IMG/VR virus record: IMGVR_UViG_3300029309_000009
Location: 62,001-85,884 of that record
Source: an uncultured virus (IMG/VR IMGVR_UViG_3300029309_000009)
Taxonomy: Duplodnaviria; Heunggongvirae; Uroviricota; Caudoviricetes
Reading direction: 5' to 3' (one strand)
Length of the DNA: 23,884 nt
Part shown: piece after piece, positions 1,899-19,591 of the stretch
Position numbering within the stretch: position 1 is the first letter of the stretch
How the letters are laid out: each line of letters begins with the position of its first letter
The notes under the pieces: model-generated
The model's database searches: none
The model's input: only the letters and a program-made list of their open reading frames with translations
What the model was told of the DNA's origin: nothing
Translations under genes and position numbers: made by a program

Positions 1899-4421
1899 AT
1901 GTCACTAACCGGCCTTCTATTTGAGAAGGAAACTGAATCCGTTTCTGATAAAATTCTCTCGCTCTTTGAAAAAACTAGAGTGGCTTATTTATCTGCTAAA
2001 AGCGACCCTAAGAATTACGGTTCTAGGTGGAGAAAAACAATCGAGAATTTAAGAGATGAATATGATAATCTAGATTACATAGGAGGACAACTAAAACAAT
2101 ATTTGGCCGAAGATATTCTAGAAAGAAAAGACGCTATGAATCCCGAAAGCCCTATTGCTGGAAAAATATACAACGCAATCAAAATGCTTAGATTTGAATC
2201 TGAAGAAGTTCAAGACCCATTTGCTAAAAGATTCAAAGGTGATGTATTAGAAGCATTACTAACAGATAGCGGAGTCATGATTAAATTTATCCACTATGCT
2301 TTAAGAAGCGATGATGAAATCCTACCCGATGAACTTTATTCTATCAAAGATATAGAGCCGGATGATATAACCGTTGGTCTAAAAGGTTTAGACTTAGACC
2401 CTAAAGATATTCCTCTTTACATAACGGAACATTATGGCGATGGTAAAAATTCTAAAAAAATAGAATCTAAATTTAAGAACGGCCTATCTCTCTTAAAATT
2501 ATTTTTCTTATCTAAAAATACTGAAGAAGAATGGAATAATCTGATGGGGATACGGCTTAACAAATCTATAATTAAAGCAGAAAAGTCTCAAGAAGAAAAA
2601 GCAGAAGTAGATTTTATAATACCTAATAAACCGATGTATAGAATTTTTGAGATAGAAGATATGAATGAACTACAAGGTTTTAGTGGAGAGTATGTCATTC
2701 AAGAAAAATATGATGGTATGAGAATACAAATTCATAAAATAGATGATAGGGTCAAGATTTATTCTTATAACGAAAAAGACATTACAGAAAAATGTCAAAA
2801 ACAAGTTGAGATAATGAAGAAAAAACAATTCGGTGATTGTATTTTAGATGCTGAACTTATACTATTTGATGGTGATGATTCCTTACATAGGGCGGATACT
2901 ATTGCTCATGTATTCAAAAATCAATATCAAGATGCAGAATTAAAGGCGCACGTATTTGACATAATGAGACACGAAGAAAGAAACATGGCTGCTGAAGAAT
3001 TAGGAGAGAGAATAAATATTTTATTTAATAATTATTCTATGCACTCGGATGAATACTTACAGTTTCCTTCTAAGAAAGATACTAGAATAGCAGATAATAT
3101 GAAAGACATAAAAGAATATAGCGAGACTATTATGGAAATGCCCACTGCTGAAGGCGTAGTAATAAAAGATATTACTTCTACTTATTATATAGGAACAAAG
3201 AAAAATCCTAAGTGGATTAAATGGAAAAAATTTGTTGATTTAGATTTGATAGTCTTAGATAAAAAGAAAACTAAGTCAAATATGTTTTCATATTCTTTAG
3301 GTGCGGGGCCAGCAGAAGGAGATGGAAAATACATTAAAGTCATAGACAAAATAAAGTATATGAATGTGGGTAAGGCTAATAATACCAAATTAGTTTTAGA
3401 TATTGGGGATATTTTGAGAGTTAAAGTAGATGAGGTAAAATTTAGCGGAGATAGATATACTATTTATGGCGCAAATCCCATTGAAATACCAGAAGTAGAA
3501 TATCCCGATAAAATAGTAACTTTAGAAATGCTTTCTAAAGAAACCAAACCTACATTAAAATTCAAAACTAAGGCATTAGAGAAGGGCATACTAATTACGG
3601 ATTATGTTCATGGTGAAGCAATACTAAAATCTATGGATGGCTTTTCTTTATATGAATTTGAAAGAGATAATTTAATGTCTAAACACGCTATGATGAATTT
3701 AAGTTCTTGGAAGTCTGACGCTGAAAATATAATGAAAACTAAACAAAGCGAATTAACTGTGGCAGTTTTTCAACAATTAAAAGAAAAAGGGCCAATTAAT
3801 ATTAAAGACTTGCATAATTTTCTAATTAAAGAACATGGCAGATTATACGACAATGTATTAGAAAGTAAAAAGGATAGGCTAATAGATTGGTTTGATAATA
3901 GAGATGGAATAACCTATAATAATAGAGAAAAAAAGTTTATTGCTGATTCAGATAAAATAATGTTAGCAGAAGAAGAATATAAAACTCCTCCGGAATACAG
4001 AAAGGGACTATTCAAAGTGTATTCTAGAAAAGATGACAATCTTACCTTTGCTATAAAGTTATTAGACGAAACATTATATTGGACTATTGACATTAATTCT
4101 GATGATGATATTTTTGACTTATTTGGAAAGGCAGGAAAGTTCCCTGCCGAAGTAGCAACTAATATATCTCCGGATTCTAAAGTCATAGACGAAGGAGATA
4201 TAACTTTAGGAGTTCAAAGAGATGGCTACCATGAGTATTTTATCAAGGGGAATAAATTTGAAACTAAAATGCACTATCGAATTGTTCCCGTAGAAGATAG
4301 AAAAATATGGTTGGTTTGGACTGGATTCAAACAAAGTCCTGCGGATAAAGAAGGAGATGAAGGTTTGTGGAATATTAATGAAGATAAATATTCAAAGTTG
4401 CTAATAAATCCGGAAAAATGA
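1899..4421 (+). CDS. lig: ATP-dependent DNA ligase with long N- and C-terminal extensions
   Basis: Nucleotidyltransferase motifs I (QEKYDGMRIQIH), III (ILDAEL), IIIa (HVFDIM), IV (EGVVIKD) and V (WIKWK), followed by an OB-fold-like segment (DLDLIVL...GDILRVKVDEV). Confidence 0.92.
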   Translation: MSLTGLLFEKETESVSDKILSLFEKTRVAYLSAKSDPKNYGSRWRKTIENLRDEYDNLDYIGGQLKQYLAEDILERKDAMNPESPIAGKIYNAIKMLRFESEEVQDPFAKRFKGDVLEALLTDSGVMIKFIHYALRSDDEILPDELYSIKDIEPDDITVGLKGLDLDPKDIPLYITEHYGDGKNSKKIESKFKNGLSLLKLFFLSKNTEEEWNNLMGIRLNKSIIKAEKSQEEKAEVDFIIPNKPMYRIFEIEDMNELQGFSGEYVIQEKYDGMRIQIHKIDDRVKIYSYNEKDITEKCQKQVEIMKKKQFGDCILDAELILFDGDDSLHRADTIAHVFKNQYQDAELKAHVFDIMRHEERNMAAEELGERINILFNNYSMHSDEYLQFPSKKDTRIADNMKDIKEYSETIMEMPTAEGVVIKDITSTYYIGTKKNPKWIKWKKFVDLDLIVLDKKKTKSNMFSYSLGAGPAEGDGKYIKVIDKIKYMNVGKANNTKLVLDIGDILRVKVDEVKFSGDRYTIYGANPIEIPEVEYPDKIVTLEMLSKETKPTLKFKTKALEKGILITDYVHGEAILKSMDGFSLYEFERDNLMSKHAMMNLSSWKSDAENIMKTKQSELTVAVFQQLKEKGPINIKDLHNFLIKEHGRLYDNVLESKKDRLIDWFDNRDGITYNNREKKFIADSDKIMLAEEEYKTPPEYRKGLFKVYSRKDDNLTFAIKLLDETLYWTIDINSDDDIFDLFGKAGKFPAEVATNISPDSKVIDEGDITLGVQRDGYHEYFIKGNKFETKMHYRIVPVEDRKIWLVWTGFKQSPADKEGDEGLWNINEDKYSKLLINPEK

Positions 4422-4464: not shown

Positions 4465-5676
4465 ATGGAAACTTCCGTTATGATAGCGAAAGAAAATGAC
4501 TTCCAAATACTCAAAGCACAAGACGATTTAATGATTGGAGGATATGCAAGCATAGAAATCGTGGATAAGCAAAATGATTTAATCACACTCAAAGCACTAC
4601 AAGAAGCAGTAAACAAATATATGGAGAATCCAAAATATAGAAATGTAATGACAAACCATTCAAATGTTCAAGTAGGAGAAGTAGTAAAAGAATATAGAGA
4701 TAAAAATGGAAAACTATGGAAAACAGAAGTAGATGATGTAGGATTTTTTGTAGTGATAAAATTAAGAGATGACATAGAAAAAGCAAAGGAAATAAACAGA
4801 GGGATTCGCAAAGGAACATTAAGGTCTTTTAGCATAGGGGGACAGGCACTTCGGAAAGTTAAGAAGCAAAATTCGGAATTAGGCGAATACAGCGAAATTA
4901 GCAAACTAGAATTACACGAAGTCACCATATGCGAAAAAGGAATTAATCCTGAAGCGAAATTTGATATTTTGAAACAAGAAAAAGAGGAGAAAAATATGAG
5001 CGATAAACTAGAAAAAGCACTTGCGGAACTTGACACTTTATTGGAAGAAGTCAATACCTTGAGGAAGGAAGAAGAAAAAGAAATGTATGGAAAGGAAATG
5101 TCTATGAAAGAAGATGAGAAAATGGAAGAAAAAGAAATGTCCATGAAAGAAGATGAAGAAATGATGGATATGAAAGAGACTATGGAATACATGGATGACG
5201 AAGCAAAAGCACAGCCGGATTTGGGCGCAGGAGTTATAGAACATGGCAACCCTGACGACAGAGTAGTTATAAGCGGTGGAAAACCCGTAGGAGAAAAGCA
5301 AGCAAAAGTTGTAAAGGCTTTTGACAATGCAGAAATTTCTACATTAAATCTATCTCCGGAAATTGTAGAGAAATCTTTCCAGCAATACAAGGCAGAAAGA
5401 CTAGAAGCAATTGCTCTAGAGAATCTAGAGAAAACCTTTGAGAGTCGCTTTGAAAACGAAGTATCTCAAAGAGAATCTATGATTGCAAAGAATAACTATG
5501 ATGCAAGGTCAGAAGTTAGCGCACTAAAGGAAGAATTGGCAGACCTAAGAAAGTCATTTTCTTCAGAAAAAGAAACTATTCTCAAAGCACAGCAAACACA
5601 ATCTGTTGCTCTACCATCTATGGATGATGTAGCAAACATGTCTTGGGCAGACTTAAACAGGCTCGCTGGAAATTGA
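4465..5676 (+). CDS. HK97-type prohead protease fused to a C-terminal scaffold
   Basis: GGYASIEIVDKQND, MTNH (His), RSFSIGG (Ser) and LHEVTICEKGINPEA fit the caudoviral prohead protease pattern. The C-terminal half is acidic coiled coil. Lies directly before the MCP. Start may be 4456 (TTG) or 4465 (ATG). Confidence 0.9.
   Translation: METSVMIAKENDFQILKAQDDLMIGGYASIEIVDKQNDLITLKALQEAVNKYMENPKYRNVMTNHSNVQVGEVVKEYRDKNGKLWKTEVDDVGFFVVIKLRDDIEKAKEINRGIRKGTLRSFSIGGQALRKVKKQNSELGEYSEISKLELHEVTICEKGINPEAKFDILKQEKEEKNMSDKLEKALAELDTLLEEVNTLRKEEEKEMYGKEMSMKEDEKMEEKEMSMKEDEEMMDMKETMEYMDDEAKAQPDLGAGVIEHGNPDDRVVISGGKPVGEKQAKVVKAFDNAEISTLNLSPEIVEKSFQQYKAERLEAIALENLEKTFESRFENEVSQRESMIAKNNYDARSEVSALKEELADLRKSFSSEKETILKAQQTQSVALPSMDDVANMSWADLNRLAGN
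4996..5676 (+). CDS. Putative nested in-frame scaffold protein (internal start)
   Basis: GAGGAG at 4984-4989 precedes an in-frame ATG at 4996 (MSDKLEKALAEL), just after the end of the protease domain. Confidence 0.6.
   Translation: MSDKLEKALAELDTLLEEVNTLRKEEEKEMYGKEMSMKEDEKMEEKEMSMKEDEEMMDMKETMEYMDDEAKAQPDLGAGVIEHGNPDDRVVISGGKPVGEKQAKVVKAFDNAEISTLNLSPEIVEKSFQQYKAERLEAIALENLEKTFESRFENEVSQRESMIAKNNYDARSEVSALKEELADLRKSFSSEKETILKAQQTQSVALPSMDDVANMSWADLNRLAGN
5092..5169 (+). repeat. 39-nt in-frame tandem duplication (KEMSMKEDE x2) in the scaffold
   Basis: aaggaaatgtctatgaaagaagatga at 5092 and aaagaaatgtccatgaaagaagatga at 5131. Confidence 0.85.
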
Positions 5677-5689
5677 GGGGGAATAAAAA

Positions 5690-7033
5690 ATGACAGGATA
5701 CATTAACACAATTAGAGACTTAGAACTAGAGACATATGGATATGGTGGCGCATTTGGCGGAAACGATATTCTAAAGCAAGCAGGAGTTACGCAAGGAATT
5801 TTCACTCCACACGATATTGCTGATGCCGGTGCAAGTGGCGTTACCGGAATTTCTAACACAACAGGACTTTACAATGTTCTTTATGGGCAGAAAGTTTGGT
5901 CAATGTTGAATAGAGAAGTAAACGCTCTTTCTATGATTTCAAAGAGACCTTATTCATCTTCCGGATGGAGAGTTCTAAAGAGCCGACCTTTCGGTGGTTC
6001 CGGAAACACACTCGCTGAAGGACTACAAAGAGATGGAAGCGGAGGAGGAATTGGTGCTGATGATGCACAATTTGATGAGATTGGTGGAGTTGCTGAAAAT
6101 GCAGGACTTTCTACTGCGGCAGATGGTCTAGGTTCTATGGCTCCAACATATGCTCAACTATTTATGAGTCCTAAAACAATTGCACACCAATTTGACTTCT
6201 CGGAGTTGGCTATGGAAATGGCAAAGATTGACGATGGAATAGGAGATATTAGGGCGCAACTTCGTGAAGATATGGGAATTGCCCACGCAGAAGCACAGAA
6301 TATGATGCTCTTAACTCCTCTAGAAAACTATGGTGAGTCATCTGCGCTATCTAACATTGAGAGAAACTATACTTCTCTAAACAAGATAGTTACAAGTCGT
6401 GCGGAACTTTTGGCTATTGATGGCGGTGTTATCGCTTCCGATGCTACAAGTGCATCAAACAATTTGGGTAAAATATTTGGTGAAGAAAGACACACTGCTG
6501 CTTCATTCCTAGATTCTGAAGTAGATTTCGGAAGCGGATATGCTAGTGGCGATGTTCGTGCTTTCACACTAACTCTACTAAATAACATGATTCGCAACCT
6601 ACGAATTGCTGGCGGTTCTCCAAAGGTTATTCTTACAGGATACGATACTATACAGGCAATTGCAGATTTGTTGCAAAGCCAAGAAAGATTCATGGATAGA
6701 AAGGAAATTGTCCCTACTGTAAATGGAGTTCGTGGAGTAAAAGGACAAGAAGTTGGATTTAGAGTAGCGACTTACTACGACATTCCACTAATTCCTTGTA
6801 AAGATATGGCTTCTACTGGCGGTGCTTCTACTAAACTAAGCGATTTGTTATTCTTAGATACAGACCATCTTTGGCTATCTGTTATGAGACCAACACAATA
6901 CTTTGAGGATGGTATTTCTAATGGAAACCCATTCGGTGTTGGCAGACTAGGAAACCAAGCACTTTACCGAACAATTGGAGAAATGGGCTGTTCATTCTTT
7001 AAGGGTCAAGGAAAGATTACCAACATTCAGTGA
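5690..7033 (+). CDS. Major capsid protein (HK97 fold)
   Basis: 447 aa, follows the protease-scaffold, SD GAGGGG. HK97-like elements include FMSPKTIAHQFDFSELA, PKVILTG, TYYDIPLIP and LLFLDTDHL. Confidence 0.88.
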   Translation: MTGYINTIRDLELETYGYGGAFGGNDILKQAGVTQGIFTPHDIADAGASGVTGISNTTGLYNVLYGQKVWSMLNREVNALSMISKRPYSSSGWRVLKSRPFGGSGNTLAEGLQRDGSGGGIGADDAQFDEIGGVAENAGLSTAADGLGSMAPTYAQLFMSPKTIAHQFDFSELAMEMAKIDDGIGDIRAQLREDMGIAHAEAQNMMLLTPLENYGESSALSNIERNYTSLNKIVTSRAELLAIDGGVIASDATSASNNLGKIFGEERHTAASFLDSEVDFGSGYASGDVRAFTLTLLNNMIRNLRIAGGSPKVILTGYDTIQAIADLLQSQERFMDRKEIVPTVNGVRGVKGQEVGFRVATYYDIPLIPCKDMASTGGASTKLSDLLFLDTDHLWLSVMRPTQYFEDGISNGNPFGVGRLGNQALYRTIGEMGCSFFKGQGKITNIQ

Positions 7034-7043
7034 GGTGTTTTGA

Positions 7044-7394
7044 TTGACACACACTGTAACACTGTTGGCTGACCATAAAGGACAGACAAGACCTAGAGTT
7101 TCCGGAGATGAATATTTCGTAGATGCAAACATTGAGATTACTTCATACACAGAAGATGGAGAAGTAATTTCTGCGTCTTCTCTAGGACTAAGCACAATCA
7201 ATGCAGTTATGATTACGGGTGCTGAAACAGCGTCCGGAGTTGCCACTGAAAGATTCGTTGTGGAATTAAGCACTGCGGGTGCTTATGAAAGTGCAAGTTC
7301 TTTCTCTCTAGTAGGAACTACTGCTAGTTCGGGTGCTGAATCGGGTAATTCTGATTTGGGATTCATTAGAGTAAGAGTTTACGGAAACCTTTGA
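7044..7394 (+). CDS. Putative capsid decoration or minor head protein
   Basis: SD GAGGTG with TTG start; beta-rich, Ser/Thr/Gly-rich, 116 aa, directly after the MCP. Function inferred from position. Confidence 0.55.
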   Translation: MTHTVTLLADHKGQTRPRVSGDEYFVDANIEITSYTEDGEVISASSLGLSTINAVMITGAETASGVATERFVVELSTAGAYESASSFSLVGTTASSGAESGNSDLGFIRVRVYGNL

Positions 7395-7404
7395 GGTGAA
7401 ATAA

Positions 7405-7788
7405 ATGGCTAAGATTATTCTTAGTGAGACTTCTGTAATGGGAAGGTTGAGAATTGGGCGAGAAGAAATCACAAGAGAAGTTTCTTGTGAAATCTCCGCA
7501 CTAAAAGGTCTGCTAAAAATGCAAGACCCCAATCTTCTCATTACATTTGAAGAATCAGATGAAGAAGAATTACTAGGCTTAGATGATAAAATTTTAGAAA
7601 TATCTCAAAGAGTTTTAAATTTATCAGATATACCTAAAGGTTCTGATTTAGTTGCTCTACTTCTACCTAAGAAAAGTGTGGCAAAGAAAGCAAAAACCAC
7701 TGCTAAAAAGGCCGCTAAAAAGGTAAAAGATACAGTAGTTCCATCGAAAACTGAAGAAATTGTAGAGGAATCTCCGGATTCTGAATAA
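7405..7788 (+). CDS. Hypothetical protein with Lys/Ala-rich low-complexity tail
   Basis: SD GAGGTGA; KKSVAKKAKTTAKKAAKKVK followed by an acidic end. Confidence 0.75.
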   Translation: MAKIILSETSVMGRLRIGREEITREVSCEISALKGLLKMQDPNLLITFEESDEEELLGLDDKILEISQRVLNLSDIPKGSDLVALLLPKKSVAKKAKTTAKKAAKKVKDTVVPSKTEEIVEESPDSE

Positions 7789-7836
7789 CCAATATCTTCA
7801 AGTATCATTGATGTAACGACTATATGAGGAGATAAT

Positions 7837-8172
7837 ATGGATACTTGTAGGTCAAGTGGAGTTTTAACTGCATCTGCTGTTATAGCGGCTCATCAATGTA
7901 GATTAAAGAGCATACATTTCAGCGTTTTTGCCGGTGGCCCTGATGTTGTTACTATCAAAGTTTTTGATTCTAAAGATTCAACTTTGACAGGAAATACTGA
8001 ATTGGCTAGACTTGTGGTTTCTAAATCTGATGTTTTTCAAGTCGGAGTAACAAATGTAGAATATGATATGCACGGAGTTTTGGCTAGAGAAGGACTCTTT
8101 CTTCAAATTACAAATAGTGAAGGAACCCCTGATGGTGCAACATTTCATGCAGTTTCCGTAGAATTTAATTGA
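7837..8172 (+). CDS. Putative small beta-sandwich virion protein
   Basis: SD GAGGAG; alternating beta-strand pattern (CRLKSIHF, VVTIKVFDS, GLFLQIT, AVSVEFN). Confidence 0.6.
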   Translation: MDTCRSSGVLTASAVIAAHQCRLKSIHFSVFAGGPDVVTIKVFDSKDSTLTGNTELARLVVSKSDVFQVGVTNVEYDMHGVLAREGLFLQITNSEGTPDGATFHAVSVEFN

Positions 8173-8181
8173 GTTGATAAA

Positions 8182-8577
8182 ATGCCAGCATTACAACATG
8201 ATACTAGATTAGTTATGACTATCTTATTTGTAGGGACAGTTAGCGGAGCAAATGTTTTCTTTTATGCTAGTTATGGGACTAGTTTCCCTTACACTACATT
8301 ATCCCATGCAACCTTATTTGGACTTATTACAGTAGGAGCAATAATGATTCTGAAAGCAGTTTTTGATTTAGCACTAAACGAAAAAATAGAAATGTATTTG
8401 CTAGACAGAAGGGTTAATCACTTTTGGGCGCAAAAGAGAAAAGAAGAAGAACAAAAGGGAAAGATTCGTGAAACGATGAAGAATTATACTACAACGTATA
8501 ATACACAACCTCAATTTTCTTCTCAAATGGATACAGACGGAATAGGAAATGAATTTTTAGCGGCTATCGAACAGTGA
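8182..8577 (+). CDS. Membrane protein with two predicted TM helices and a charged coiled-coil tail
   Basis: Hydrophobic segments LVMTILFVGTVSGANVFFYA and ATLFGLITVGAIMILKAVF, then QKRKEEEQKGKIRE. Confidence 0.8.
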   Translation: MPALQHDTRLVMTILFVGTVSGANVFFYASYGTSFPYTTLSHATLFGLITVGAIMILKAVFDLALNEKIEMYLLDRRVNHFWAQKRKEEEQKGKIRETMKNYTTTYNTQPQFSSQMDTDGIGNEFLAAIEQ

Positions 8578-8587
8578 GGTGAATCCT

Positions 8588-8806
8588 TTGGTTTTTACCG
8601 GCTTTGATGAAAGTGCAATGGCCTATGATTTACAAAGGGCGCATTCTGCTGATATTTGGTTTCTTAAATTTAGAGCATATTTTTGGGGAACTTGTGCGGC
8701 TTTGTCGGGTTTTCTAATAGGAAATATTCTAGGAGTTTTTGATATAAATATTCTAGGATGGATTTTAAATTCTACACAGGATGCTTGGGAATATACATTT
8801 GGGTGA
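8588..8806 (+). CDS. Small membrane protein
   Basis: SD GAGGTGA (8576-8582) favours the TTG at 8588; hydrophobic FWGTCAALSGFLIGNILGVFDINILGWIL. Confidence 0.75.
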   Translation: MVFTGFDESAMAYDLQRAHSADIWFLKFRAYFWGTCAALSGFLIGNILGVFDINILGWILNSTQDAWEYTFG

Positions 8807-8812
8807 TTGGAT

Positions 8813-9475
8813 GTGTCAGTCCTTGCAGGTTTCGCAATAGTAGTTACTGAAGCAGCAATAGCATTTTACAAAAGAATACATGCTATAAATTTCGGTGTTT
8901 ATGGTGCTACTAAAGTAGGCAAAACTACTTTGCACCATCAGTTAAGAACTAGAGGTGAAGTTCCCGATATTAAAAAAAGAACTGTTGGACTACATAGGGG
9001 AACTAGAAAAACCATAAAACTAGATGGAGAAACTCACACTTTGAAAACGGCTGATGTTGGGGGAGAATCTTTCTATTGGAAAGAATGGATAAAAGATATG
9101 CGAAAGCGTAAAGTGAATTATATTATTTTTATGATAGACCATAGACATTTAGAAAGTTCTGCAAATTTAGACCATCAATTAGCATGGAAATTTTTAGTAG
9201 ATGCAATATGTTCTTCTACTTGGCCCGATGGAAAAAAGAAAAAAGAAGCAGACTATCCTATGGCTATTGGTATTTGGGCTAACAAATATGATTTGTGGGG
9301 AAAGCGTTATTCTCATGAAGGGGAAATACAAAATCACCCCATCTACGAGCCTTTTAAATATGGGATGCAAAAATTAAATGATAAAGGAATACCTACTTTC
9401 AAGTATATCGTATCGGCTAAGTCTCAGCCCGAAATGGTTTACAAAGGAGTTACAACAATGATAAAGGACTACTGA
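8813..9475 (+). CDS. Arf/Sar-like small GTPase (Ras superfamily) with hydrophobic N-terminal helix
   Basis: G1 GATKVGKTT, G2 RTVG, G3 DVGGE, IIFMID strand, G4 WANKYD, G5 SAK. SD GGGTGA (8801-8806) favours the GTG at 8813. Confidence 0.88.
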   Translation: MSVLAGFAIVVTEAAIAFYKRIHAINFGVYGATKVGKTTLHHQLRTRGEVPDIKKRTVGLHRGTRKTIKLDGETHTLKTADVGGESFYWKEWIKDMRKRKVNYIIFMIDHRHLESSANLDHQLAWKFLVDAICSSTWPDGKKKKEADYPMAIGIWANKYDLWGKRYSHEGEIQNHPIYEPFKYGMQKLNDKGIPTFKYIVSAKSQPEMVYKGVTTMIKDY

Positions 9476-9480
9476 TTAAA

Positions 9481-10122
9481 ATGTATCAACAGAACATAAT
9501 AGATAGACCAACATTTACTGCACCTTCGGCATTTTTACCGCCTTTGCAGAGAGCAAGAGCAAGTGGCCCCGTAGAGGAATATAAGTGCGTTAATATTAAA
9601 CCCAAAAAGCAATTGAAGGAACTAGTTAAAGTTCTATATCCGGAAAAAAAATCATTTTTAAAAATTAAATATGGTAATAAATTTAATTTAAAAGATAGGT
9701 GCGTAGTTTGTGGAATGCACCACGTTTGGGATAGTGGAGATTACATGAGACCACCTATTCCTCTAACACAAGTATTGAAGGGTAGGCCCATGAGAGGAAC
9801 TTATTGTCCTAAACATGCAGGTATTCACAGACAAATGGAAATGCTTCAGCAACAAATTTTGGCAGAACAACATGGATTAGAATTTAAGGCATTTATTCCT
9901 AAAATGCCAAAGTTATCAAGAAAAGGCCCATTGAATACCTTAACCAAAGAAGATGTAGTCTCTCTTTCTAATGCCGGATGGCTTATTAAACCGCCCACAT
10001 TAGGAGATAATAAGTCGGCTACTGATGAGGCGATTGAGATAGTAGGAGAAATAAATATTCTTACGGATAGATTAAATCATCTTATAATACAAAAAGGGGC
10101 AAAAGTAGAGGGAGAGGACTAA
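9481..10122 (+). CDS. Putative Zn-binding protein
   Basis: CVVC...YCPKH Cys/His ligand pairs; basic and Pro-rich. Confidence 0.7.
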   Translation: MYQQNIIDRPTFTAPSAFLPPLQRARASGPVEEYKCVNIKPKKQLKELVKVLYPEKKSFLKIKYGNKFNLKDRCVVCGMHHVWDSGDYMRPPIPLTQVLKGRPMRGTYCPKHAGIHRQMEMLQQQILAEQHGLEFKAFIPKMPKLSRKGPLNTLTKEDVVSLSNAGWLIKPPTLGDNKSATDEAIEIVGEINILTDRLNHLIIQKGAKVEGED

Positions 10123-10123
10123 A

Positions 10124-10771
10124 ATGTTAGGGACAAGTAACAAGACAGTTTTGGGTGCTGTTCAAGCACAAGGAGACCAGCAATTCAAGAATGTAAATAA
10201 TTTACTTTCTTTACAAGATAACCATGTAGAGGAATTTTTTCAATATCACGGAGATAAATTTTTGAAAAGTTTAGAGCAACTTATGGAAGATGTTACTGAG
10301 AGAGTAGTAAGCAGAATGCTTTCTAAACTTCAGTTAGTCCAAGATGATACTACTAAAACAATAAAGGTTCATCCCGATGCTCTTAGAGAATATGAAGGAA
10401 TTACTTCTGCTAATATTGAGTTAGATGTTATGAATTTGTTAAATTCTGCGATAGATTCAGAGGTTATTAATCAAAGAAAGATGGCTAAGTCTCAATTCCT
10501 AGAGTCTCAAGGATTTAGCGGAGGGCAGCAACAAGTTGGAGTAGGTTTAGCAGTAGCAGGTTTGACAGGACAAACTCAACAATATAATCAAGTTCAATCG
10601 GCAGTAGGAAACGGTTCAGGTTTCCCTATACCTCCTAGTGGTCAAGACATGTATGGGAGACCATATTGGTTAGATGCAAACGGTCAAGCATCATATGAAG
10701 CACCAAAGTCCGGACTTGGATTAGGTTCTAAAATACAAAAAACTGCTGCTTGGGCTAAATGGTTAATGTGA
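10124..10771 (+). CDS. Hypothetical protein: helical N-terminal half, Gly/Gln-rich C-terminal half, amphipathic C-terminus
   Basis: SD GAGAGG; ends GLGLGSKIQKTAAWAKWLM. Confidence 0.8.
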   Translation: MLGTSNKTVLGAVQAQGDQQFKNVNNLLSLQDNHVEEFFQYHGDKFLKSLEQLMEDVTERVVSRMLSKLQLVQDDTTKTIKVHPDALREYEGITSANIELDVMNLLNSAIDSEVINQRKMAKSQFLESQGFSGGQQQVGVGLAVAGLTGQTQQYNQVQSAVGNGSGFPIPPSGQDMYGRPYWLDANGQASYEAPKSGLGLGSKIQKTAAWAKWLM

Positions 10772-10772
10772 G

Positions 10773-12251
10773 TTGATTACTTTGCCTACTAAAGTAATTG
10801 GTTTTGATGGCAGTATTGCCAATTGGCCTACTGACTATATAGATATAATAAGAAATACAGTTACAGGTAAAGATGGAGAAAGGTTTTCATTAGAAGGAAG
10901 TAAAAATATATCTACCCTTGCTCAAAATTCACAAATAAGTAATTTGATTGAATTTGATAATGATTCATTTGTAGAAGAAGGATTAGAAATATTGAAGGGA
11001 ATTGAGAATGAAAAAATATTAACTTTAGCAAAAGAAGGAAATCCTTCCGCAGTTTTATATAGAGATTTAGAAAGAAGTAGAATATTTGATGATGTTAAAG
11101 ATTTTACATTGAAAGATATGGAAGATTCAGATAATCTCTTAAAAATTATAGGTTATAGTTTATTTGGTAAAGTTACTGATAAAGAACCCGAAGAAGAAAT
11201 TGGCCTATATGAAGAATATGCGGATACACCGGCTGCTCAAAGATATGTAGAATCGTTTAGAAATATTCCGCAAACTGAAGCAGAAGGTAGAGATGCTCCA
11301 AATTTACCTGCTATGTTCATGACTAATAAGTATGAACCGATTGAAACCTTCACACTTAGAAGAAGAAAAATAGATACGTTAGATGAACATTACGAAGTAG
11401 AAATAAAAAGAGCATCCTCTAGTGATAAGGTTTCAGAATTTTTCTATTTTAACTATGATAATACTTCACAAAGAAGAAATTTTTTAGAAAGATTTTATCC
11501 TAATCTAGTTTATAAAACAACAGGAAAAGATATTTTAGACTCTACTAGAGCCGTTTCGCCAAATGTTTTGAGTGGGGATATTACCATTAATCTTGATTTT
11601 TATGAAAAACTAATAAAAAACGGAAAGTATGTTAAAGCCACCGAAGCACAAAAAATATTAAGTGATTTTTTGCAAGATGAATTTTATAAAAAGTTCTTTT
11701 TCAAGTTTAAGAAATTTTTAGAAGAATCTAATAAGGCTGACCCTCTTAGAGATGAAAAATACAAAGTATATTTTTCAGGAACTCTTAGAAAAATTCCTGT
11801 TAAGGATGCTACGCCTAAAACATTTAAGGTCAAAGTAAAAATACAATCAGTGGAAAAAGGAAGATTTGACATTAGCCCCTTTGCTAAGAATATAAGAAGA
11901 AAAGGTAAGAAACCTAATATTGATGTTATTTTACAACAGGAAATAAAAAATAGATTGGTTGCTCCTAAAGATGTTTATATGCAAGCAGTAGAGGAATATA
12001 TAGATAAGGAAAATGAACTATCAAATCTAAGCGATGAAGATACAAAACAACTTGAAGGTCAAAATATAGAGGTAGGTAAACTGCAAGAAATAATACGGGA
12101 AAGTAAAGAATCCGCTACAAAAAGAATGCAGGAATTTGAAGAATACTCTCAACGTAGAGAGTATAGATTTAATGAAAGATTAGCAGACCACATAGAAGAA
12201 ATAATGGATAGATTCTCTGTTGTAGAAAATGCAATAAAGGAGGGTGCTTGA
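10773..12251 (+). CDS. Hypothetical 492-aa charged protein
   Basis: Long ORF filling the gap between neighbours; no motif recognised; start codon uncertain. Confidence 0.75.
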   Translation: MITLPTKVIGFDGSIANWPTDYIDIIRNTVTGKDGERFSLEGSKNISTLAQNSQISNLIEFDNDSFVEEGLEILKGIENEKILTLAKEGNPSAVLYRDLERSRIFDDVKDFTLKDMEDSDNLLKIIGYSLFGKVTDKEPEEEIGLYEEYADTPAAQRYVESFRNIPQTEAEGRDAPNLPAMFMTNKYEPIETFTLRRRKIDTLDEHYEVEIKRASSSDKVSEFFYFNYDNTSQRRNFLERFYPNLVYKTTGKDILDSTRAVSPNVLSGDITINLDFYEKLIKNGKYVKATEAQKILSDFLQDEFYKKFFFKFKKFLEESNKADPLRDEKYKVYFSGTLRKIPVKDATPKTFKVKVKIQSVEKGRFDISPFAKNIRRKGKKPNIDVILQQEIKNRLVAPKDVYMQAVEEYIDKENELSNLSDEDTKQLEGQNIEVGKLQEIIRESKESATKRMQEFEEYSQRREYRFNERLADHIEEIMDRFSVVENAIKEGA

Positions 12252-12252
12252 A

Positions 12253-13374
12253 ATGCCAACCGTATTTTCCCCAAGCGACTACACTACAATTAATCCGGAT
12301 TATTCTACCGGAAAAGGATTCTATACAGATAAAGACGCTATCTCTGATTTACTACAAATACCTGCATTTACAGCAGGGACAAATCCTACTCAAGCGCAGG
12401 TAGGTTCCATCATAAAAAGAGTAGAGGGAATGATTGATGATAAAGTCAAAAGGTCTTATCGCCCCATCCGACATGAACATGAAGTTCATAATTTTAATTT
12501 TAGTAGAAATCCAGCAGATTCTTATTTTGGAGGATATGTAGGGTTTGTTCAATTGCAACACATGAAAGTTAGAAAGATTGTTAGCCTACAAGTTTGGCAA
12601 GGTAATGCGTATAAAGAATTAGCATCTGCTCAAGCAAGTATAGAAATTTTAGACCATTCTAAACTAAATACAATAGTATTGACACTTCCCGATGGTTCTA
12701 CAACTTTTACATTAAATGCTAGTAATAGCGTAGGAACGTCTTTATCTGATTCTAATTTTAATAAAAAGTTTGGAAATAAAACTACTGCTAAAGAAATTGT
12801 TGCTTTAATTAATGAGCAGTTCCCTTCCAAAACCTTTTCATTTACAAAAGCAGATAATAGAAAAAGTCTAACCGAAGATGGAGGAACCGATTATGATATT
12901 TCTGATTTCTTTTATGCAAGCACTGACCCCGACAATGGAACTAAAATAAATATATCTTCTTTACTAGAAGGCGAGGATGGTTCAGAATGTTCAATAGTTG
13001 CGACTGTTACAGCAGGAAGTGTTGCTGATTCTATTTTAGTTGAAGGATTTACCGATAGACAAGATATGAAAAGATTAGGAAGTTTCTTTAAAATTGGAAA
13101 CGAAGGTCGTTTGTTTTTCTTGAAAGACTATCCATACCATACAGAAAATTCTGTAATCGTTTCGTATATTGCAGGAGATTCTAGAGTTCCTTCCGCAATA
13201 CATGAAGCCGCTACTAAATTAGCAGCAGCAGAAATTTTAAGACATGATGACCAAACTATTCTAATTGCAGAAACAGGAGCAAATATAACTACTAAAGAAA
13301 AATATGATATTCTTAAAACTGAGGCTATGGCAATTCTAGATGGCAAGAAAGATGTAGTGTATATTATTGAGTGA
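12253..13374 (+). CDS. Head-tail adaptor (SPP1 gp15/HK97 gp6-like) with a large inserted domain
   Basis: N-terminal YTDKDAISDLL...IIKRVEGMIDD and C-terminal VSYIAGDSRVPSAIHEAATKLAAAEIL fit the adaptor pattern; SD GGAGGG before ATG 12253. Confidence 0.7.
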   Translation: MPTVFSPSDYTTINPDYSTGKGFYTDKDAISDLLQIPAFTAGTNPTQAQVGSIIKRVEGMIDDKVKRSYRPIRHEHEVHNFNFSRNPADSYFGGYVGFVQLQHMKVRKIVSLQVWQGNAYKELASAQASIEILDHSKLNTIVLTLPDGSTTFTLNASNSVGTSLSDSNFNKKFGNKTTAKEIVALINEQFPSKTFSFTKADNRKSLTEDGGTDYDISDFFYASTDPDNGTKINISSLLEGEDGSECSIVATVTAGSVADSILVEGFTDRQDMKRLGSFFKIGNEGRLFFLKDYPYHTENSVIVSYIAGDSRVPSAIHEAATKLAAAEILRHDDQTILIAETGANITTKEKYDILKTEAMAILDGKKDVVYIIE

Positions 13375-13378
13375 TAAT

Positions 13379-13585
13379 ATGTTTGAAGACATTAGCCAAA
13401 AGTTTGAAAAATATCTAGAAATAGAAAAGGAAAGAAATTTACAAATGCTTGAAGTTTCTAGATTATTAGGAGTAGACTTTACTTTTTCAGAAGAAGAACT
13501 AATTAAAAATGTAGAGCAAAAGATAGCAGACTATATGGAGAAAACTTTACAAGAAAAATTCAAAAAAATGGTTGAGGGAATATAA
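13379..13585 (+). CDS. Small helical hypothetical protein in the neck region
   Basis: ORF bridging adaptor and terminator with a TAATG overlap; start 13367 or 13379. Confidence 0.65.
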   Translation: MFEDISQKFEKYLEIEKERNLQMLEVSRLLGVDFTFSEEELIKNVEQKIADYMEKTLQEKFKKMVEGI

Positions 13586-14117: not shown

Positions 14118-15734
14118 ATGACAAACACAGACATATTTTTAGGAAGCGGTGCAACATTATCATTAGTGCCGGAATTAGATTTATTTGCTTTAGTTAATCA
14201 TAGTGCTAGTAACACTACTAAATTAATACCTGAAGATGCCTTTATTGTAAATTATCTTCTAGTAAATAATTTATATGTGGGTTGTGTTCTAGAACTTTAC
14301 GAAACGGGAACTACTTCTCCCTTGTCTGTTCATACTGTTACTGAAAACGATTCTACTTCCTTTACTATTTCACCTGCTTGCAGAACTCCTGCTTCGGGGG
14401 ATTTTATAGTAATAAAGTCCTATGGCGCACCTAGCGTTGGGCAAAGAAATTCTTCTGTTAAAAGACTAAATGCTGACAATTGGTTAGGAATTTTAGAAAG
14501 TGCAGAATTTCCAAACGTAGAAGTAGAGGTCAAGCAATCAAATCTTTCTTTGGGAGGTTCTAGAAACTTTACCCATCAGTATAAGGGAATAGAAACTGCA
14601 AGTGGAGGAAACTTGAACATTGTGGCTAATCAAGGAACTTGGCTATACTATGCTTTAGGTGCTTGTGAGCAAGTTTTAGCAAAAACGAATAATGACCATC
14701 CTACTAGTAAAACAGATGCTTCGGTGGCAGGAGATGTATATATTGATACAGGAAATGCAGGAGATTCCGGACAAAGCACAATTCAAACTCATTTGAATCA
14801 AGGGCCAATATTTTACAAGACAGGATATGCGGCTACCGGAGTTGCGGGGGATGCTTTAACTCCTCCATTAGTAAATCATTTAGACTTACATACTAATACA
14901 GAACAATTAGTGCTTCCATCTACTCCTTCCTCTATAACAGATGCAATCACATATACATTTATAGAGGCAAACGGAGAGGACTTACCTTCTTTTGCATTAG
15001 AACAATCTATTAGCAAACTAGTTAGTGGTTCTGAGAACTTGACAGATACTTCTGCCAATTTAGAAGACTTAAACTTCGTAAGAATTGCAAGAGGAAATAG
15101 AGTCAATACTTTTACTATGACCGCAAACGAAAACGAAGAAGTAAAAATGACTCTTGACCTAATGACAAGAACTGTTCACAAGTTAGACCAAAACGAAGTA
15201 TATGAATCTAGAGGTGGCGCAGGAACTGTCAATACCAATTTGTTTAACTTTGAAACAGATGAATTCTTAGAACCATTCTTTTTCTCAAGAGGTTCCTTTA
15301 GTTTATTCGGACAACAGTTCCTAAAGGTTACAAATATGACTTTGACAATCAATAACAATTTACAAGAAAAGAGATTCATTGGTGTAGGAAACACTTCTAT
15401 TCAAGATGCTATTCCGTCAAATAGAGGATACGAATTATCATTTACTGCTTTAGTAACAGATGATTTACTCTTTGAGGAACTGTTCAATAGAAATGAAAAT
15501 ACAGGAACTTCCGTAGTTACAAATGGAACAAACTTTGCCACTGATGCACAGATTGATTTGAAATTCAATAAAGCAAATAACGAAGAAATTAATATCTCTT
15601 TCAAGAACTATTTCCTAGAAAGTGCAAACTTTACAATACCGGATGACAAAGGGCCAATAACTGTTGAAGCAATGGTAAGGCCAAGAGATTTGAAGGAATG
15701 CACAGTAAAAACCCATTGGATTTTACAGGGGTGA
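14118..15734 (+). CDS. Major tail tube protein with inserted domains
   Basis: Tube-like motifs LPSFALEQ, RVNTFTMTANENEEVKMTLDL, NMTLTINNNL and RGYELSFTA; precedes the chaperones and tape measure; SD GGAGAGGG. Confidence 0.78.
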   Translation: MTNTDIFLGSGATLSLVPELDLFALVNHSASNTTKLIPEDAFIVNYLLVNNLYVGCVLELYETGTTSPLSVHTVTENDSTSFTISPACRTPASGDFIVIKSYGAPSVGQRNSSVKRLNADNWLGILESAEFPNVEVEVKQSNLSLGGSRNFTHQYKGIETASGGNLNIVANQGTWLYYALGACEQVLAKTNNDHPTSKTDASVAGDVYIDTGNAGDSGQSTIQTHLNQGPIFYKTGYAATGVAGDALTPPLVNHLDLHTNTEQLVLPSTPSSITDAITYTFIEANGEDLPSFALEQSISKLVSGSENLTDTSANLEDLNFVRIARGNRVNTFTMTANENEEVKMTLDLMTRTVHKLDQNEVYESRGGAGTVNTNLFNFETDEFLEPFFFSRGSFSLFGQQFLKVTNMTLTINNNLQEKRFIGVGNTSIQDAIPSNRGYELSFTALVTDDLLFEELFNRNENTGTSVVTNGTNFATDAQIDLKFNKANNEEINISFKNYFLESANFTIPDDKGPITVEAMVRPRDLKECTVKTHWILQG

Positions 15735-15739
15735 TTTTC

Positions 15740-15847
15740 TTGGATAAATATACTAAGAGAAGAATTATGGCAGAAAAACTCAAGGCTCCTAAGAAAAGAG
15801 GCCGACCAAAAAAAGAGGTAGTTAAAGAAGAAGAAACTACTGAATGA
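15740..15847 (+). CDS. 35-aa AT-hook microprotein (not in ORF track)
   Basis: SD GGGGTGA (15728-15734), TTG start, MDKYTKRRIMAEKLKAPKKRGRPKKEVVKEEETTE*; alternative ATG at 15767. Confidence 0.65.
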   Translation: MDKYTKRRIMAEKLKAPKKRGRPKKEVVKEEETTE

Positions 15848-15849
15848 TA

Positions 15850-15893
15850 TTCCACCAACACCGTTTGTTCGTTTGTTGGTTTTGTAGGTGGAA
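15850..15893 (+). promoter_or_regulatory. Potential RNA structure overlapping the RBS of the tail chaperone gene
   Basis: TTCCACC (15850-56) is complementary to GGTGGAA (15887-93); ACCAACA (15854-60) is complementary to TGTTGGT (15874-80). Confidence 0.45.
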
Positions 15894-15896
15894 AGA

Positions 15897-16265
15897 ATGT
15901 TAAACAAAAAAATAGTAAGTGACAAGAGTGTAATGTTTGCACTCTCAGAAGCAAAATGCCATTGGATAAAAGTTTCAGAGGATTCTGAAGAATATCTAAA
16001 AGTATGGATTAAAGACCCTACTTGGCTAGAAGTAGAAAAAGCAGTGAACTCTTTAATGAACATTGATGCTAAGAATCAAAGTTTAGATATTGATTTAAAT
16101 AAAATGTATCGCTATATGGTTGATAATTTTATTACAAAAACTGAGCCTTCTTTATCTACGGTTGATTTAATTAGACTCAATCCCTATATTGGTAATCAAA
16201 TAAAAGAAATACTTCCTAATCCCTTTGAATTAATGTCGGGGGATGAAGAAAAAAACGCAAATTGA
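15897..16265 (+). CDS. Tail assembly chaperone (lambda gpG-like)
   Basis: Between tube and tape measure; SD AGGTGG then ATG 15897; ends at a slippery site. Confidence 0.75.
   Translation: MLNKKIVSDKSVMFALSEAKCHWIKVSEDSEEYLKVWIKDPTWLEVEKAVNSLMNIDAKNQSLDIDLNKMYRYMVDNFITKTEPSLSTVDLIRLNPYIGNQIKEILPNPFELMSGDEEKNAN
16250..16256 (+). other. Programmed -1 ribosomal frameshift site A AAA AAC
   Basis: X XXY YYZ heptamer in the correct phase (GAA AAA AAC GCA AAT TGA); the -1 frame continues RKLRRAVRRGEG into ORF 16262..16468. Confidence 0.8.
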
Positions 16266-16468
16266 GGCGAGCAGTTAGGCGAGGTGAAGGAGATACCTCA
16301 ACAGCAAGCCTCATAATAGTTTATACCTTAGCAAAAGCATTGGGAATAAATCCTTTAGAAGTATATGAGATGCCAGCACAACTAGTAATGGATATGCTAA
16401 CAATTCACGGCATAGTAGAAGAATATAAAGCGGAAGAACTAGAAAAGAAATCCAAGAAGGTGAAATAA
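16262..16468 (+). CDS. Frameshift extension of the tail assembly chaperone (gpT-like)
   Basis: In the -1 frame of the chaperone, no evident SD of its own; YTLAKALGINPLEVYEMP fits the gpGT C-terminal pattern. Confidence 0.72.
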   Translation: MRRAVRRGEGDTSTASLIIVYTLAKALGINPLEVYEMPAQLVMDMLTIHGIVEEYKAEELEKKSKKVK

Positions 16469-18451: not shown

Positions 18452-19591
18452 ATGTATGAAGTTTTAGCAGGTAGACAGCGAGCGTTGGTCTTTCCTGTTA
18501 TGTGTAATGGTCATGTTAAGATAGATTATAGGGACAATGTTGTAGATACAGGAGGAGATTCTTCTACTACAAATGACGTTGCATATGGACTATGGGCGCA
18601 TGAAGGAGATTTTACTTTTGAAAGTATAATCACTCCGTATGAAATAAATGGTCATGGAACTTATTCTTCTGCTTCTGCTCTTGCTACCGATAGTAAAAAA
18701 GTAATGCCAGCACTTTCACAATCTGTTTATACTGCGGGAAATGAAGGAAATTTCCAAAGTGAATTGTATTTATCTAGAACTGCTAGACTTACTCATGAAA
18801 TGATGATTTTTCATAATACTAATTTTCAAATCTCTTTACTTAATTCAACCTTACATAATGAAAATAATCCTGCTAGATATAAGATTAGAGTTAGATTAAA
18901 ATTAGGGACTTCTACTGAAACATACACGACTGAAGAAGTAATTACTCCTGTTGATTCCGGAAGACAATTTAGAAGTTCTACTATTTCGGGAATAACTTCC
19001 CTTCATGTAAATTCCGATGGTAGAAAAACACATAGAAAATTAGGAACGATTAGTAGTGTTAGCGGGGCAACATTTACTGTTTCTAGTGCATTCAATCTTT
19101 TTGATGGCGACAAATTAGAGTTATTTGTTGTAAGGAATGGAGAAATAGTTTCTATTGGAACCATAAAAACCATTAGCGGAAGTAACGTAACTTTAACCGC
19201 TACTCCCTCTATTAGCCTACAAAATGGAGAGGAATTTTACATCAAAGATGAGCAAATGGCAACCTACACAGAAAATACTTTTCACGTTGCTTGCACGTTT
19301 AACTCATCTTCTAGAACATTGAAAATTTTCTTAAATGGTTCTTTAGTTAAACAAGATGACCATTCAACCGATGATACTTTTTCTTTTGCTAAAGAGGATA
19401 CTTATATTGGGGCTAATGGAACAGGTTCTACGGGGGCAGGTTCAGCAACAACCAATAAGCAATTTATGGGAGAATTGCACGAAATGTCTATGATGGGCGT
19501 AGAAAGAAAAGAGTTTAAAGGAGTTCTAAACTTGATACCTAAATTTGAAGATACTTTATTTTATTTCAGATTTGAGGAGGTGGACTTGTGA
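18452..19591 (+). CDS. Tail protein with LamG/concanavalin A-like domain
   Basis: DFTFESIITP, FHVACTFNSSSRTLKIFLNGSLV, TYIGAN and FMGELHEMSM match the LamG-like pattern; SD GAGGTGA. Confidence 0.78.
   Translation: MYEVLAGRQRALVFPVMCNGHVKIDYRDNVVDTGGDSSTTNDVAYGLWAHEGDFTFESIITPYEINGHGTYSSASALATDSKKVMPALSQSVYTAGNEGNFQSELYLSRTARLTHEMMIFHNTNFQISLLNSTLHNENNPARYKIRVRLKLGTSTETYTTEEVITPVDSGRQFRSSTISGITSLHVNSDGRKTHRKLGTISSVSGATFTVSSAFNLFDGDKLELFVVRNGEIVSIGTIKTISGSNVTLTATPSISLQNGEEFYIKDEQMATYTENTFHVACTFNSSSRTLKIFLNGSLVKQDDHSTDDTFSFAKEDTYIGANGTGSTGAGSATTNKQFMGELHEMSMMGVERKEFKGVLNLIPKFEDTLFYFRFEEVDL

Follow-up and report, generated by a model that had tools for sequence, protein, structure and literature searches.

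The Arf family of small GTPases is marked by an N-terminal amphipathic helix that is myristoylated at Gly2, and the G3 motif of these proteins, DVGGQ, carries the catalytic Gln. An interswitch toggle in this family links the nucleotide state to the exposure of the helix. In eukaryotic SR-beta, an Arf-like G domain is combined with an N-terminal membrane anchor, and a soluble partner is docked in a GTP-dependent manner. The GTPases of giant viruses were captured recently from the Rab, Ras or Ran genes of eukaryotic hosts, and we know of no holin system that includes a GTPase. The present analysis concerns a cassette of five genes around a small GTPase, best labelled Arf-like, in the DNA of an uncultured tailed archaeal virus. 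The window, i.e., the whole stretch of 23,884 nucleotides that was analysed, corresponds to positions 62001–85884 of the 85.9-kb virus record IMG/VR IMGVR_UViG_3300029309_000009, the completeness of which was estimated at 93%. A cellular system of archaea, ArvA-ArvB-ArvC (OapABC) of Haloferax volcanii, was also used for comparison; there, a small GTPase beside a Zn-ribbon protein drives vesicle formation, and the zinc protein was proposed as a regulator of the GTPase (PMC10927574, in the part of the article that was available).

The source virus is a magrovirus, one of the tailed viruses that infect uncultured Marine Group II (Poseidoniales) archaea. Magrovirus genomes range from about 65 to 100 kb. 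The assignment was based on the gene content of the record and on a 70% identical homologue of the GTPase, which is named by NCBI as a hypothetical protein of Poseidoniales virus YSH_150918. The window encodes a prohead protease, an HK97-type capsid protein, a tail tube protein, tail chaperones and a tape measure protein. In the rest of the record, a family scan of the open reading frames (ORFs) found a split family-B DNA polymerase (PolB), an RFC-like clamp loader, an ATP-dependent DNA ligase, a thermosome-type chaperonin, a TFB-type zinc ribbon, an XPF/ERCC4-HhH nuclease, a Cas4-like nuclease, the large terminase (TerL) and the portal. This gene set agrees with the ICTV magrovirus profile, in which Poseidoniales virus YSH_150918 is the exemplar of Aoguangviridae, order Magrovirales (PMC10768690). 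An earlier interpretation of the same DNA, made from its letters alone and called the sequence-only reading here, had implied a haloarchaeal frame; this was not borne out, as the virus belongs to uncultured Poseidoniales and has a G+C content of 34%. The G+C fraction of the cassette, 0.35–0.36, equals that of its flanks.

The five genes, with lengths in amino acids (aa) and the basis of each assignment, are as follows.

8182..8577, + strand: gene A, 131-aa protein with two predicted membrane segments (ORF, hydrophobicity scan, relatives)
8579..8806, + strand: gene B, 75-aa protein with one predicted membrane segment (ORF, hydrophobicity scan, relatives)
8807..9475, + strand: gene C, 222-aa small GTPase with an Arf-like predicted fold (G1–G5 motifs, AlphaFold2 model)
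9481..10122, + strand: gene D, 213-aa soluble protein with CxxC...CxxH, a probable zinc site (alignment)
10124..10771, + strand: gene E, 215-aa Gln/Gly-rich protein (alignment)

The gaps between successive genes are 1, 0, 5 and 1 bases, in line with the five tightly packed genes of the sequence-only reading. That reading had also placed the cassette between head and neck genes. The head side of this claim stood, with the major capsid protein at 5690–7033, while neck genes were not positively identified; on the other side, the tail tube protein lies at 14118–15734. In a Kyte-Doolittle scan, hydrophobic segments were found in A, B and the GTPase and in neither D nor E, giving three consecutive products with predicted membrane segments. 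These three form the sole cluster of ORFs with hydrophobic segments in the genome. Taken together, the evidence described below shows a conserved, virus-only module around a nucleotide switch that looks functional; three of its products are predicted to lie in or on a membrane.

The GTPase and its four partner proteins

Gene C had been read as a complete Ras-superfamily GTPase, and both its motifs and its predicted fold bear this out. In an alignment of 27 sequences spanning 62–95% identity, motifs G1–G5 were invariant, namely, G33-x4-G38-K39-T40-T41 (G1), the switch-I residue T59, D83-x-G85-G86, N159-K160-x-D162 and S203-A204-K205. Moreover, G33, G38, K39, T59, D83, G86, N159 and K160 were invariant in 55 sequences down to 23% identity. 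As judged from these alignments, the invariant motifs are the signature of an active nucleotide-binding site, not of a relic. No fused form of the GTPase was found among proteins of 491–2000 aa, which is weak evidence.

The AlphaFold2 model of the GTPase reached a predicted local distance difference test score (pLDDT) of 87.9 and a predicted template-modelling score (pTM) of 0.84, and showed a small G-domain fold. When the model was compared with PDB chains using VIA-align, the 36 best matches, Asgard ArfR among them, all belonged to the Arf family (Z 19.1–17.7, root-mean-square deviation 2.2–2.6, ~160 of ~165 residues). Rab and G-alpha came next at Z 17.6–17.2, which is within the tie range of the tool for neighbouring matches, and all 1000 re-aligned chains reached a Z of at least 8. 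Foldseek returned Rab1, Arl3, Rab6 and NRAS together at E about 5e-10. At the sequence level, the window GTPase stayed below the cut-offs of Pfam Ras (19.2 vs 21.6 bits), Roc (19.8 vs 27), MMR_HSR1 (18.7 vs 21.9) and SRPRB (15.3 vs 25) and of NCBIfam TIGR00231 (27.4 vs 42.5), and it gave no match to Pfam Arf (PF00025) at E ≤ 0.1. Over the 55 family members, Arf was the best-scoring Pfam family overall, with 16 matches at E ≤ 0.01 (best 4.2e-9); SRPRB matched 12 members (best E 5.9e-6), Roc 24 and Ras 11. A PDB profile search with the GTPase gave Arl8/Arl10 and Ras at a best E of only about 0.05, and some JGI records automatically name relatives 'GTPase SAR1 family protein'. On the basis of the model, the fold is that of a small GTPase, for which 'Arf-like' seems the best label by a small margin.

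Compared with the Arf family (Arf1, Arf6, Arl1, Arl3, Arl6, Arl8 and Asgard ArfR, PDB 8oum/8ouk), the viral GTPase shares the fold, a membrane-seeking N-terminal helix ahead of the G domain, and the motifs 'T-V-G' in switch I and 'D-[VI]-G-G-[QE]' in G3. However, the sequence identity is only 17–24%, Rab and G-alpha fall within 2 Z units, in this genome the hydrophobic character of the helix far exceeds its amphipathicity, the catalytic Gln is replaced by Glu, and the partners A, B, D and E resemble no known Arf guanine-nucleotide exchange factor, GTPase-activating protein (GAP) or coat. The N-terminal hydrophobic helix covers residues about 3–24 (Kyte-Doolittle segment 1–21). It is similar to a transmembrane (TM) helix, with a mean Eisenberg hydrophobicity of 0.73 and a moment of 0.16; Glu15 and Gly8 are invariant, and the helix is shorter in a sister subclade (0.55). 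The helix may either span the membrane or only dip into it. Residue 2 is Asp (Ser in relatives), so the Gly2 required for myristoylation is absent. In this genome, DxGG is followed by Glu (DVGGE); of 45 distinct close relatives, 28 share this Glu and 17 have Gln. The residue is mostly Gln in the second lineage described below, and His, Ala or others in some relatives. A covariation of this Glu/Gln site with position 102 of protein D (Arg/Lys vs Tyr) was considered and rejected, because four Glu+Tyr exceptions occurred and the remaining cases follow two subclades.

The other four genes had been described by the sequence-only reading as a two-TM protein, a small TM protein, a CxxC/CxxH protein and a Gly/Gln-rich protein with a Trp/Lys C-terminus, and each description was supported. 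Protein A has hydrophobic segments at 10–29 and 39–66, followed by a K/R/E-rich C-terminal tail, and its invariant residues are D7, T8, R9, G18, G22, N24, T50, G52, K58 and D62. Protein B has one hydrophobic segment at 38–63 with an invariant R-A-H-S-A motif ahead of it. By the positive-inside rule, the tail of A, the N-terminal region of B, the G domain, D and E would be cytoplasmic. A, B, D and E gave no meaningful match to Pfam or NCBIfam, where the remaining matches (E 0.003–0.12) were far below cut-off and look like noise, and no cassette protein matched PHROGs or PADLOC.

In protein D, C74-x2-C77 and C109-x2-H112 were invariant in 24 relatives, and this Cys/His set is a probable zinc site. 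The stretch 'G-[RY]-P-M-R-G-T-Y-C-P-[KE]-H' is conserved and common to the second lineage, and a near-invariant R-P-P-x-P-L is found in D of the window lineage. The AlphaFold2 model of D had a pLDDT of 76.2, with about 84–93 in the core (20–135). No fold match was obtained (Foldseek best E 3.4; VIA-align best Z 4.3, with none of at least 5 among 48,161 chains), a PDB profile search returned a single non-significant match (E 0.89), and no named neighbour above 0.84 was found in the ESM Atlas, in which protein E also had no usable match. An ArfGAP-like C-x2-H-x4-R motif in D was rejected, since relatives have Lys or Met in place of Arg117 and the second lineage lacks this Arg.

Protein E consists of a conserved N-terminal helical part, a Gly/Gln/Pro-rich linker of variable length and a C-terminal stretch, which reads 'GRPYW-D-x-TGQ-x-SYEPP' with a terminal A-W-A-K-W-L in this genome. 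The family pattern is 'Y-P-[VI]-P-P-x-G-x-D-...-P-Y-W-x-D-...-Q-x-x-[YF]-x-x-P', with an invariant terminal A-W-x-K-W-L. A PDB profile search gave five matches, one of them to a WW chain of Itch (E 1.9) and none of them significant (best E 0.12); a WW-like character of the C-terminal stretch is an unproven lead.

Conservation and distribution of the cassette

A total of 235 relatives of the GTPase were found in the viral contig collection, and the best 80 (61–99% identity) were studied by tblastn of 15 window proteins against the related loci. Protein A was present in 77 loci, B in 78, the GTPase in 80, D in 77 and E in 71. The cassette genes were collinear and on one strand in all 80 loci, and every absent gene would fall beyond the end of its locus. 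As collinearity of the five genes was complete in 80/80 loci, the cassette is not due to chance, and the co-occurrence in relatives that the sequence-only reading depended on was borne out. In the 56 loci holding seven reference genes at >70% coverage, the median identity was 69% for the GTPase, 65% for the capsid protein, 60% for the protease, 58% for E, 57% for D, 55% for B and 54% for A. The GTPase, with the highest value of the seven genes, is thus the best-conserved gene of the region.

Two observations on the locus itself are added here. The 5-base GTPase/D joint (9475–9481) is empty in this genome, and relatives carry one to three additional ORFs there, all starting MITMW[KQ]..[IV]LK (L003 8757–9170; L017 10666–11836); the gap was at least 81 bases in 27 of 77 loci. 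Marine metatranscriptome contigs of relatives (3 runs of one study; 150–365 nucleotides, 90–100% alike) cover 4835–7898, where they fall on the protease, the capsid gene and neighbouring small genes; as contigs alone, they leave transcription unproven. One further piece lies at 10725–10875, over the junction of E and the next gene, and none lies over 8182–10700, which says nothing on the expression of the cassette.

The distribution of the GTPase beyond these loci was narrow. A profile of the 27 GTPases, searched against 1.84 billion representative proteins, gave only 81 matches at E ≤ 0.001, among which the full-length relatives were 228–264 aa long with about 30% identity. In GTDB, with one genome per species (185,579 prokaryote species), two loci were found, both in a single metagenome-assembled genome (MAG) labelled bacterial. 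These loci, L170 and L171, are 72% and 63% identical to the viral GTPase, and the label of the MAG is that of an alphaproteobacterium; they are probably mis-binned virus DNA. The phage collection gave no tblastn match, no viral contig was found for the distant relatives P0037 and P0061, and a cluster look-up of ten distant relatives returned singletons without context. The 50 best structural matches among predicted viral proteins (BFVD) were all from giant viruses of eukaryotes and none from a prokaryotic virus. Such giant-virus GTPases (e.g., mimivirus Rab, PDB 5xc5) are likewise virus-encoded members of the Ras superfamily and are structurally close (Z 17.6; BFVD E down to 9.4e-10). They differ in that the present GTPase belongs to a tailed archaeal virus, has no close cellular relative, and comes with its own anchor and partners. 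From these searches, the GTPase family looks confined to these archaeal viruses, with no credible cellular copy.

An alignment of six distant GTPase relatives led to 266 further viral loci, of which 80 were kept. Two of the records, of 103–105 kb and 98% complete, have a TerL 37–38% identical to that of the window genome and an unsplit PolB; these second-lineage records are another magrovirus lineage. The gene order there is a 2200–3000-aa ORF, a 170–200-aa TM protein, an 80-aa TM protein, the GTPase, a 290–330-aa homologue of D and a 190–225-aa Gln/Asn/Gly-rich protein. The architecture of the cassette therefore recurs, with the 170–200-aa protein and the protein of about 80 aa, each with a TM segment, as positional analogues of A and B. 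A hidden Markov model of D matched the ORF adjoining the GTPase in 64 of the 80 loci, and hhalign between the lineages gave 96.9% for D (E 2e-10) and 91.6% for the N-terminal part of E (E 8e-7). The GTPase, the zinc protein and the Gln-rich protein are accordingly detectably homologous between the two lineages, and G1, T59, G3 and NKxD of the GTPase are kept down to 23–34% identity. The second-lineage cassette lies ~7 kb upstream of the terminase gene and not beside the capsid gene. As the genome location differs and the gene order is the same, the cassette moves as a unit, independent of its structural neighbours.

The large ORF directly upstream of the second-lineage cassette is without a Pfam match (e.g., L120 2497–9108; L086–L165). 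On the 3' side, a sixth gene of 77–90 aa with two TM segments was found in 56 of the 80 loci (e.g., L120 12178–12435), and hmmsearch detected no counterpart in the window genome (nothing at E ≤ 10).

Candidate functions of the cassette

The reading we favour, at a probability of about 40%, is that the cassette encodes a membrane-anchored GTP switch complex that acts at the host membrane late in infection and most likely controls release. The five genes would form one functional module on the cytoplasmic face of the host membrane, where the Arf-like GTPase would be held by its N-terminal hydrophobic helix. A and B would sit beside the GTPase in the membrane, with the charged tail of A and the R-A-H-S-A region of B facing the cytoplasm. 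Zinc-type D and Gln-rich E may be the soluble regulator and effector, reading or setting the nucleotide state. Made together with the virion proteins, the module would license a late change of the host membrane, which may be opened or remodelled so that finished virions exit, with gene A as the holin-like candidate.

Release was taken as the most likely output because no other release function was found among the 122 ORFs and because tailed archaeal viruses use an egress machinery that is uncharacterised. The sequence-only reading had seen no endolysin in the window, and the scan agreed: no lysis enzyme or holin family of Pfam was detected in the 28 window ORFs, nor in the 94 other ORFs of the genome. 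According to the part of a 2024 review that was available, the players in the egress of tailed archaeal viruses are uncharacterised and holins remain elusive (PMC10791045). With phage holin cassettes, the present cassette shares a small protein, A, with two TM segments and a charged C-terminal tail, which is a generic description, and more broadly small membrane proteins with one or two TM segments, which in holin cassettes are made late. It differs from them in lacking an adjacent endolysin or other envelope-degrading enzyme and in a conservation much higher than is usual for holins. A more specific version, in which the cassette is the release machine of tailed archaeal viruses, with holin-like A and B gated by the anchored Arf-like GTPase, D as regulator, E as effector and the GTP state timing the opening of the envelope, is doubtful.

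Several points weigh against a switch for release. The membrane location and topology, the association of the five products, the late timing and the egress output are things we only infer. Between A and its second-lineage analogue, profile similarity was undetectable (hhalign probability 0.9%), and the same was true for B (0.4%). The GTPase helix of the second lineage is Gly/Ala-rich with a hydrophobicity of 0.36–0.54; as this segment is much weaker than in the window lineage, a true transmembrane anchor is not general. The variation among Glu, Gln, His and other residues after DxGG means that the catalytic mechanism is not settled, and D is without a recognisable GAP or other fold. Phage lysis genes usually evolve fast, and the GTPase, being more conserved than the capsid protein, is unlike them, which speaks against release. 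A classical holin-type lysis cassette is also made somewhat less likely by the very strong conservation and by the location within the structural block. Finally, in both lineages the cassette is part of the morphogenesis block, which fits a role in assembly equally well.

Such a role is the first alternative: a membrane-tethered factor for virion assembly or maturation, serving as a platform or checkpoint for head assembly, DNA packaging or head-tail joining and not for release. In both lineages the cassette lies within the block of structural genes; its conservation matches that of the core virion genes, among which it is packed without gaps, and E has a scaffold-like build, with its helical N-terminal part, flexible linker and conserved C-terminal peptide. 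However, the neighbours differ between the lineages (the capsid gene here; the giant ORF and a terminase-proximal position there), so the gene order ties the cassette to no assembly step. The protease gene already has a long charged C-terminal extension as a possible scaffold, the BFVD matches point to giant viruses and to no prokaryotic virus, and we know of no tailed virus that needs a small GTPase for assembly. We regard this explanation as unlikely, though deserving of serious weight.

Next, the cassette could be a host take-over or exclusion device, in which an SR-beta-like anchored GTPase docks viral or host factors, with a block of superinfection, redirected secretion or S-layer insertion, or suppression of vesicles as output. 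The build of the viral protein, an N-terminal hydrophobic anchor with an Arf-like G domain, is that of SR-beta; SRPRB is the family matched by 12 of the 55 members, and one distant relative was automatically named SR-beta by its source. SR-beta also has His after DxGG, as some of the relatives do. On the other hand, the window GTPase itself scored well below the SRPRB cut-off, no SR-alpha-like partner was seen among the cassette proteins, and PADLOC gave no match. Genes for exclusion or take-over usually vary and are found away from the structural block, of which the cassette is a near-invariant part. A device of this kind is less probable than an assembly factor.

That the cassette was captured from the host ArvABC vesiculation system, then diverged, and serves to bud or vesiculate the host membrane appears improbable. 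To our knowledge, budding of tailed virions has never been observed. The cassette proteins matched no relevant Pfam family at E ≤ 0.1 except generic GTPase models, and DUF2072 (ArvC) and DUF2073 (ArvB) were among the families not matched by any of them at this threshold. The few matches among the representative proteins reveal no large cellular family, and GTDB added only the two loci of one MAG. In both systems, a small GTPase is paired with a neighbouring zinc-type protein, although this is a loose analogy only: ArvABC is cellular and the cassette viral, and in the available part of the ArvABC article no membrane-protein partners are reported, whereas the viral set has two, and a Gln-rich protein as well (PMC10927574). 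That the products are ordinary virion structural proteins with hydrophobic stretches and a decayed NTPase fold agrees with their position in the structural block but is highly improbable, given nucleotide-binding motifs invariant over 27 sequences, a core kept to 23–34% identity, and products predicted to span the membrane, as an HK97-type tailed particle is not expected to contain integral membrane proteins.

Other genes of the genome and significance

Outside the cassette, several features of the genome were noted. An 840-aa ORF at 1899–4421 of the window, inside the head-gene block and directly before the protease, contains an ATP-dependent ligase-type nucleotidyltransferase domain (Pfam DNA_ligase_A_M, 1.1e-26, residues 260–443), and a separate canonical 514-aa DNA ligase is encoded in the replication block (G000 22430–23974; G000 coordinates lie outside the window). 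Two ORFs ~1 kb apart (G000 12685–13578 and 14606–16333) encode the split family-B DNA polymerase; small ORFs lie between the halves, one of which encodes 86 aa with two hydrophobic segments. A ThiF/E1-like protein (8.3e-17; G000 28505–29059), a member of the Kyanoviridae Gp96 family, which is otherwise named from cyanophages (3.5e-17; G000 40535–40831), and an EF-hand-like ORF below threshold (G000 53094–53534) were also found. At the end of the window, after the tape measure gene and two more genes, an ORF of >1432 aa (19588–23883) runs past the window end; it had no Pfam or PHROG match and is presumably a tail-tip or fibre protein.

A search of the literature on small GTPases in viruses of Poseidoniales and archaeal Caudoviricetes found no description of the cassette. 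The word GTPase was not found in the available main text of five articles on magroviruses and archaeal tailed viruses (PMC5434244, PMC10160649, PMC11706807, PMC8651126 and PMC7318539), and no GTPase is listed in the legend of the gene map in the ICTV profile (PMC10768690).

Magroviruses belong to the most abundant archaeal viruses in surface ocean waters, and they infect hosts that are uncultured. What is predicted here is a GTP switch that is linked to the membrane, strictly conserved, restricted to viruses and accompanied by fixed partners; it is a concrete five-gene target that can be expressed and tested without culture of the host. The findings suggest that viruses of Euryarchaeota-grade archaea possess Arf-type switches together with partner sets of their own, which bears on the origin of the membrane machinery of small GTPases. 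If the cassette were indeed the release machine, it would represent a new kind of lysis control, in which the GTP state, rather than holin concentration alone, serves as the timer, and also a lineage of Arf-type membrane switches that is independent, is carried by viruses and lies outside eukaryotes and Asgard archaea.

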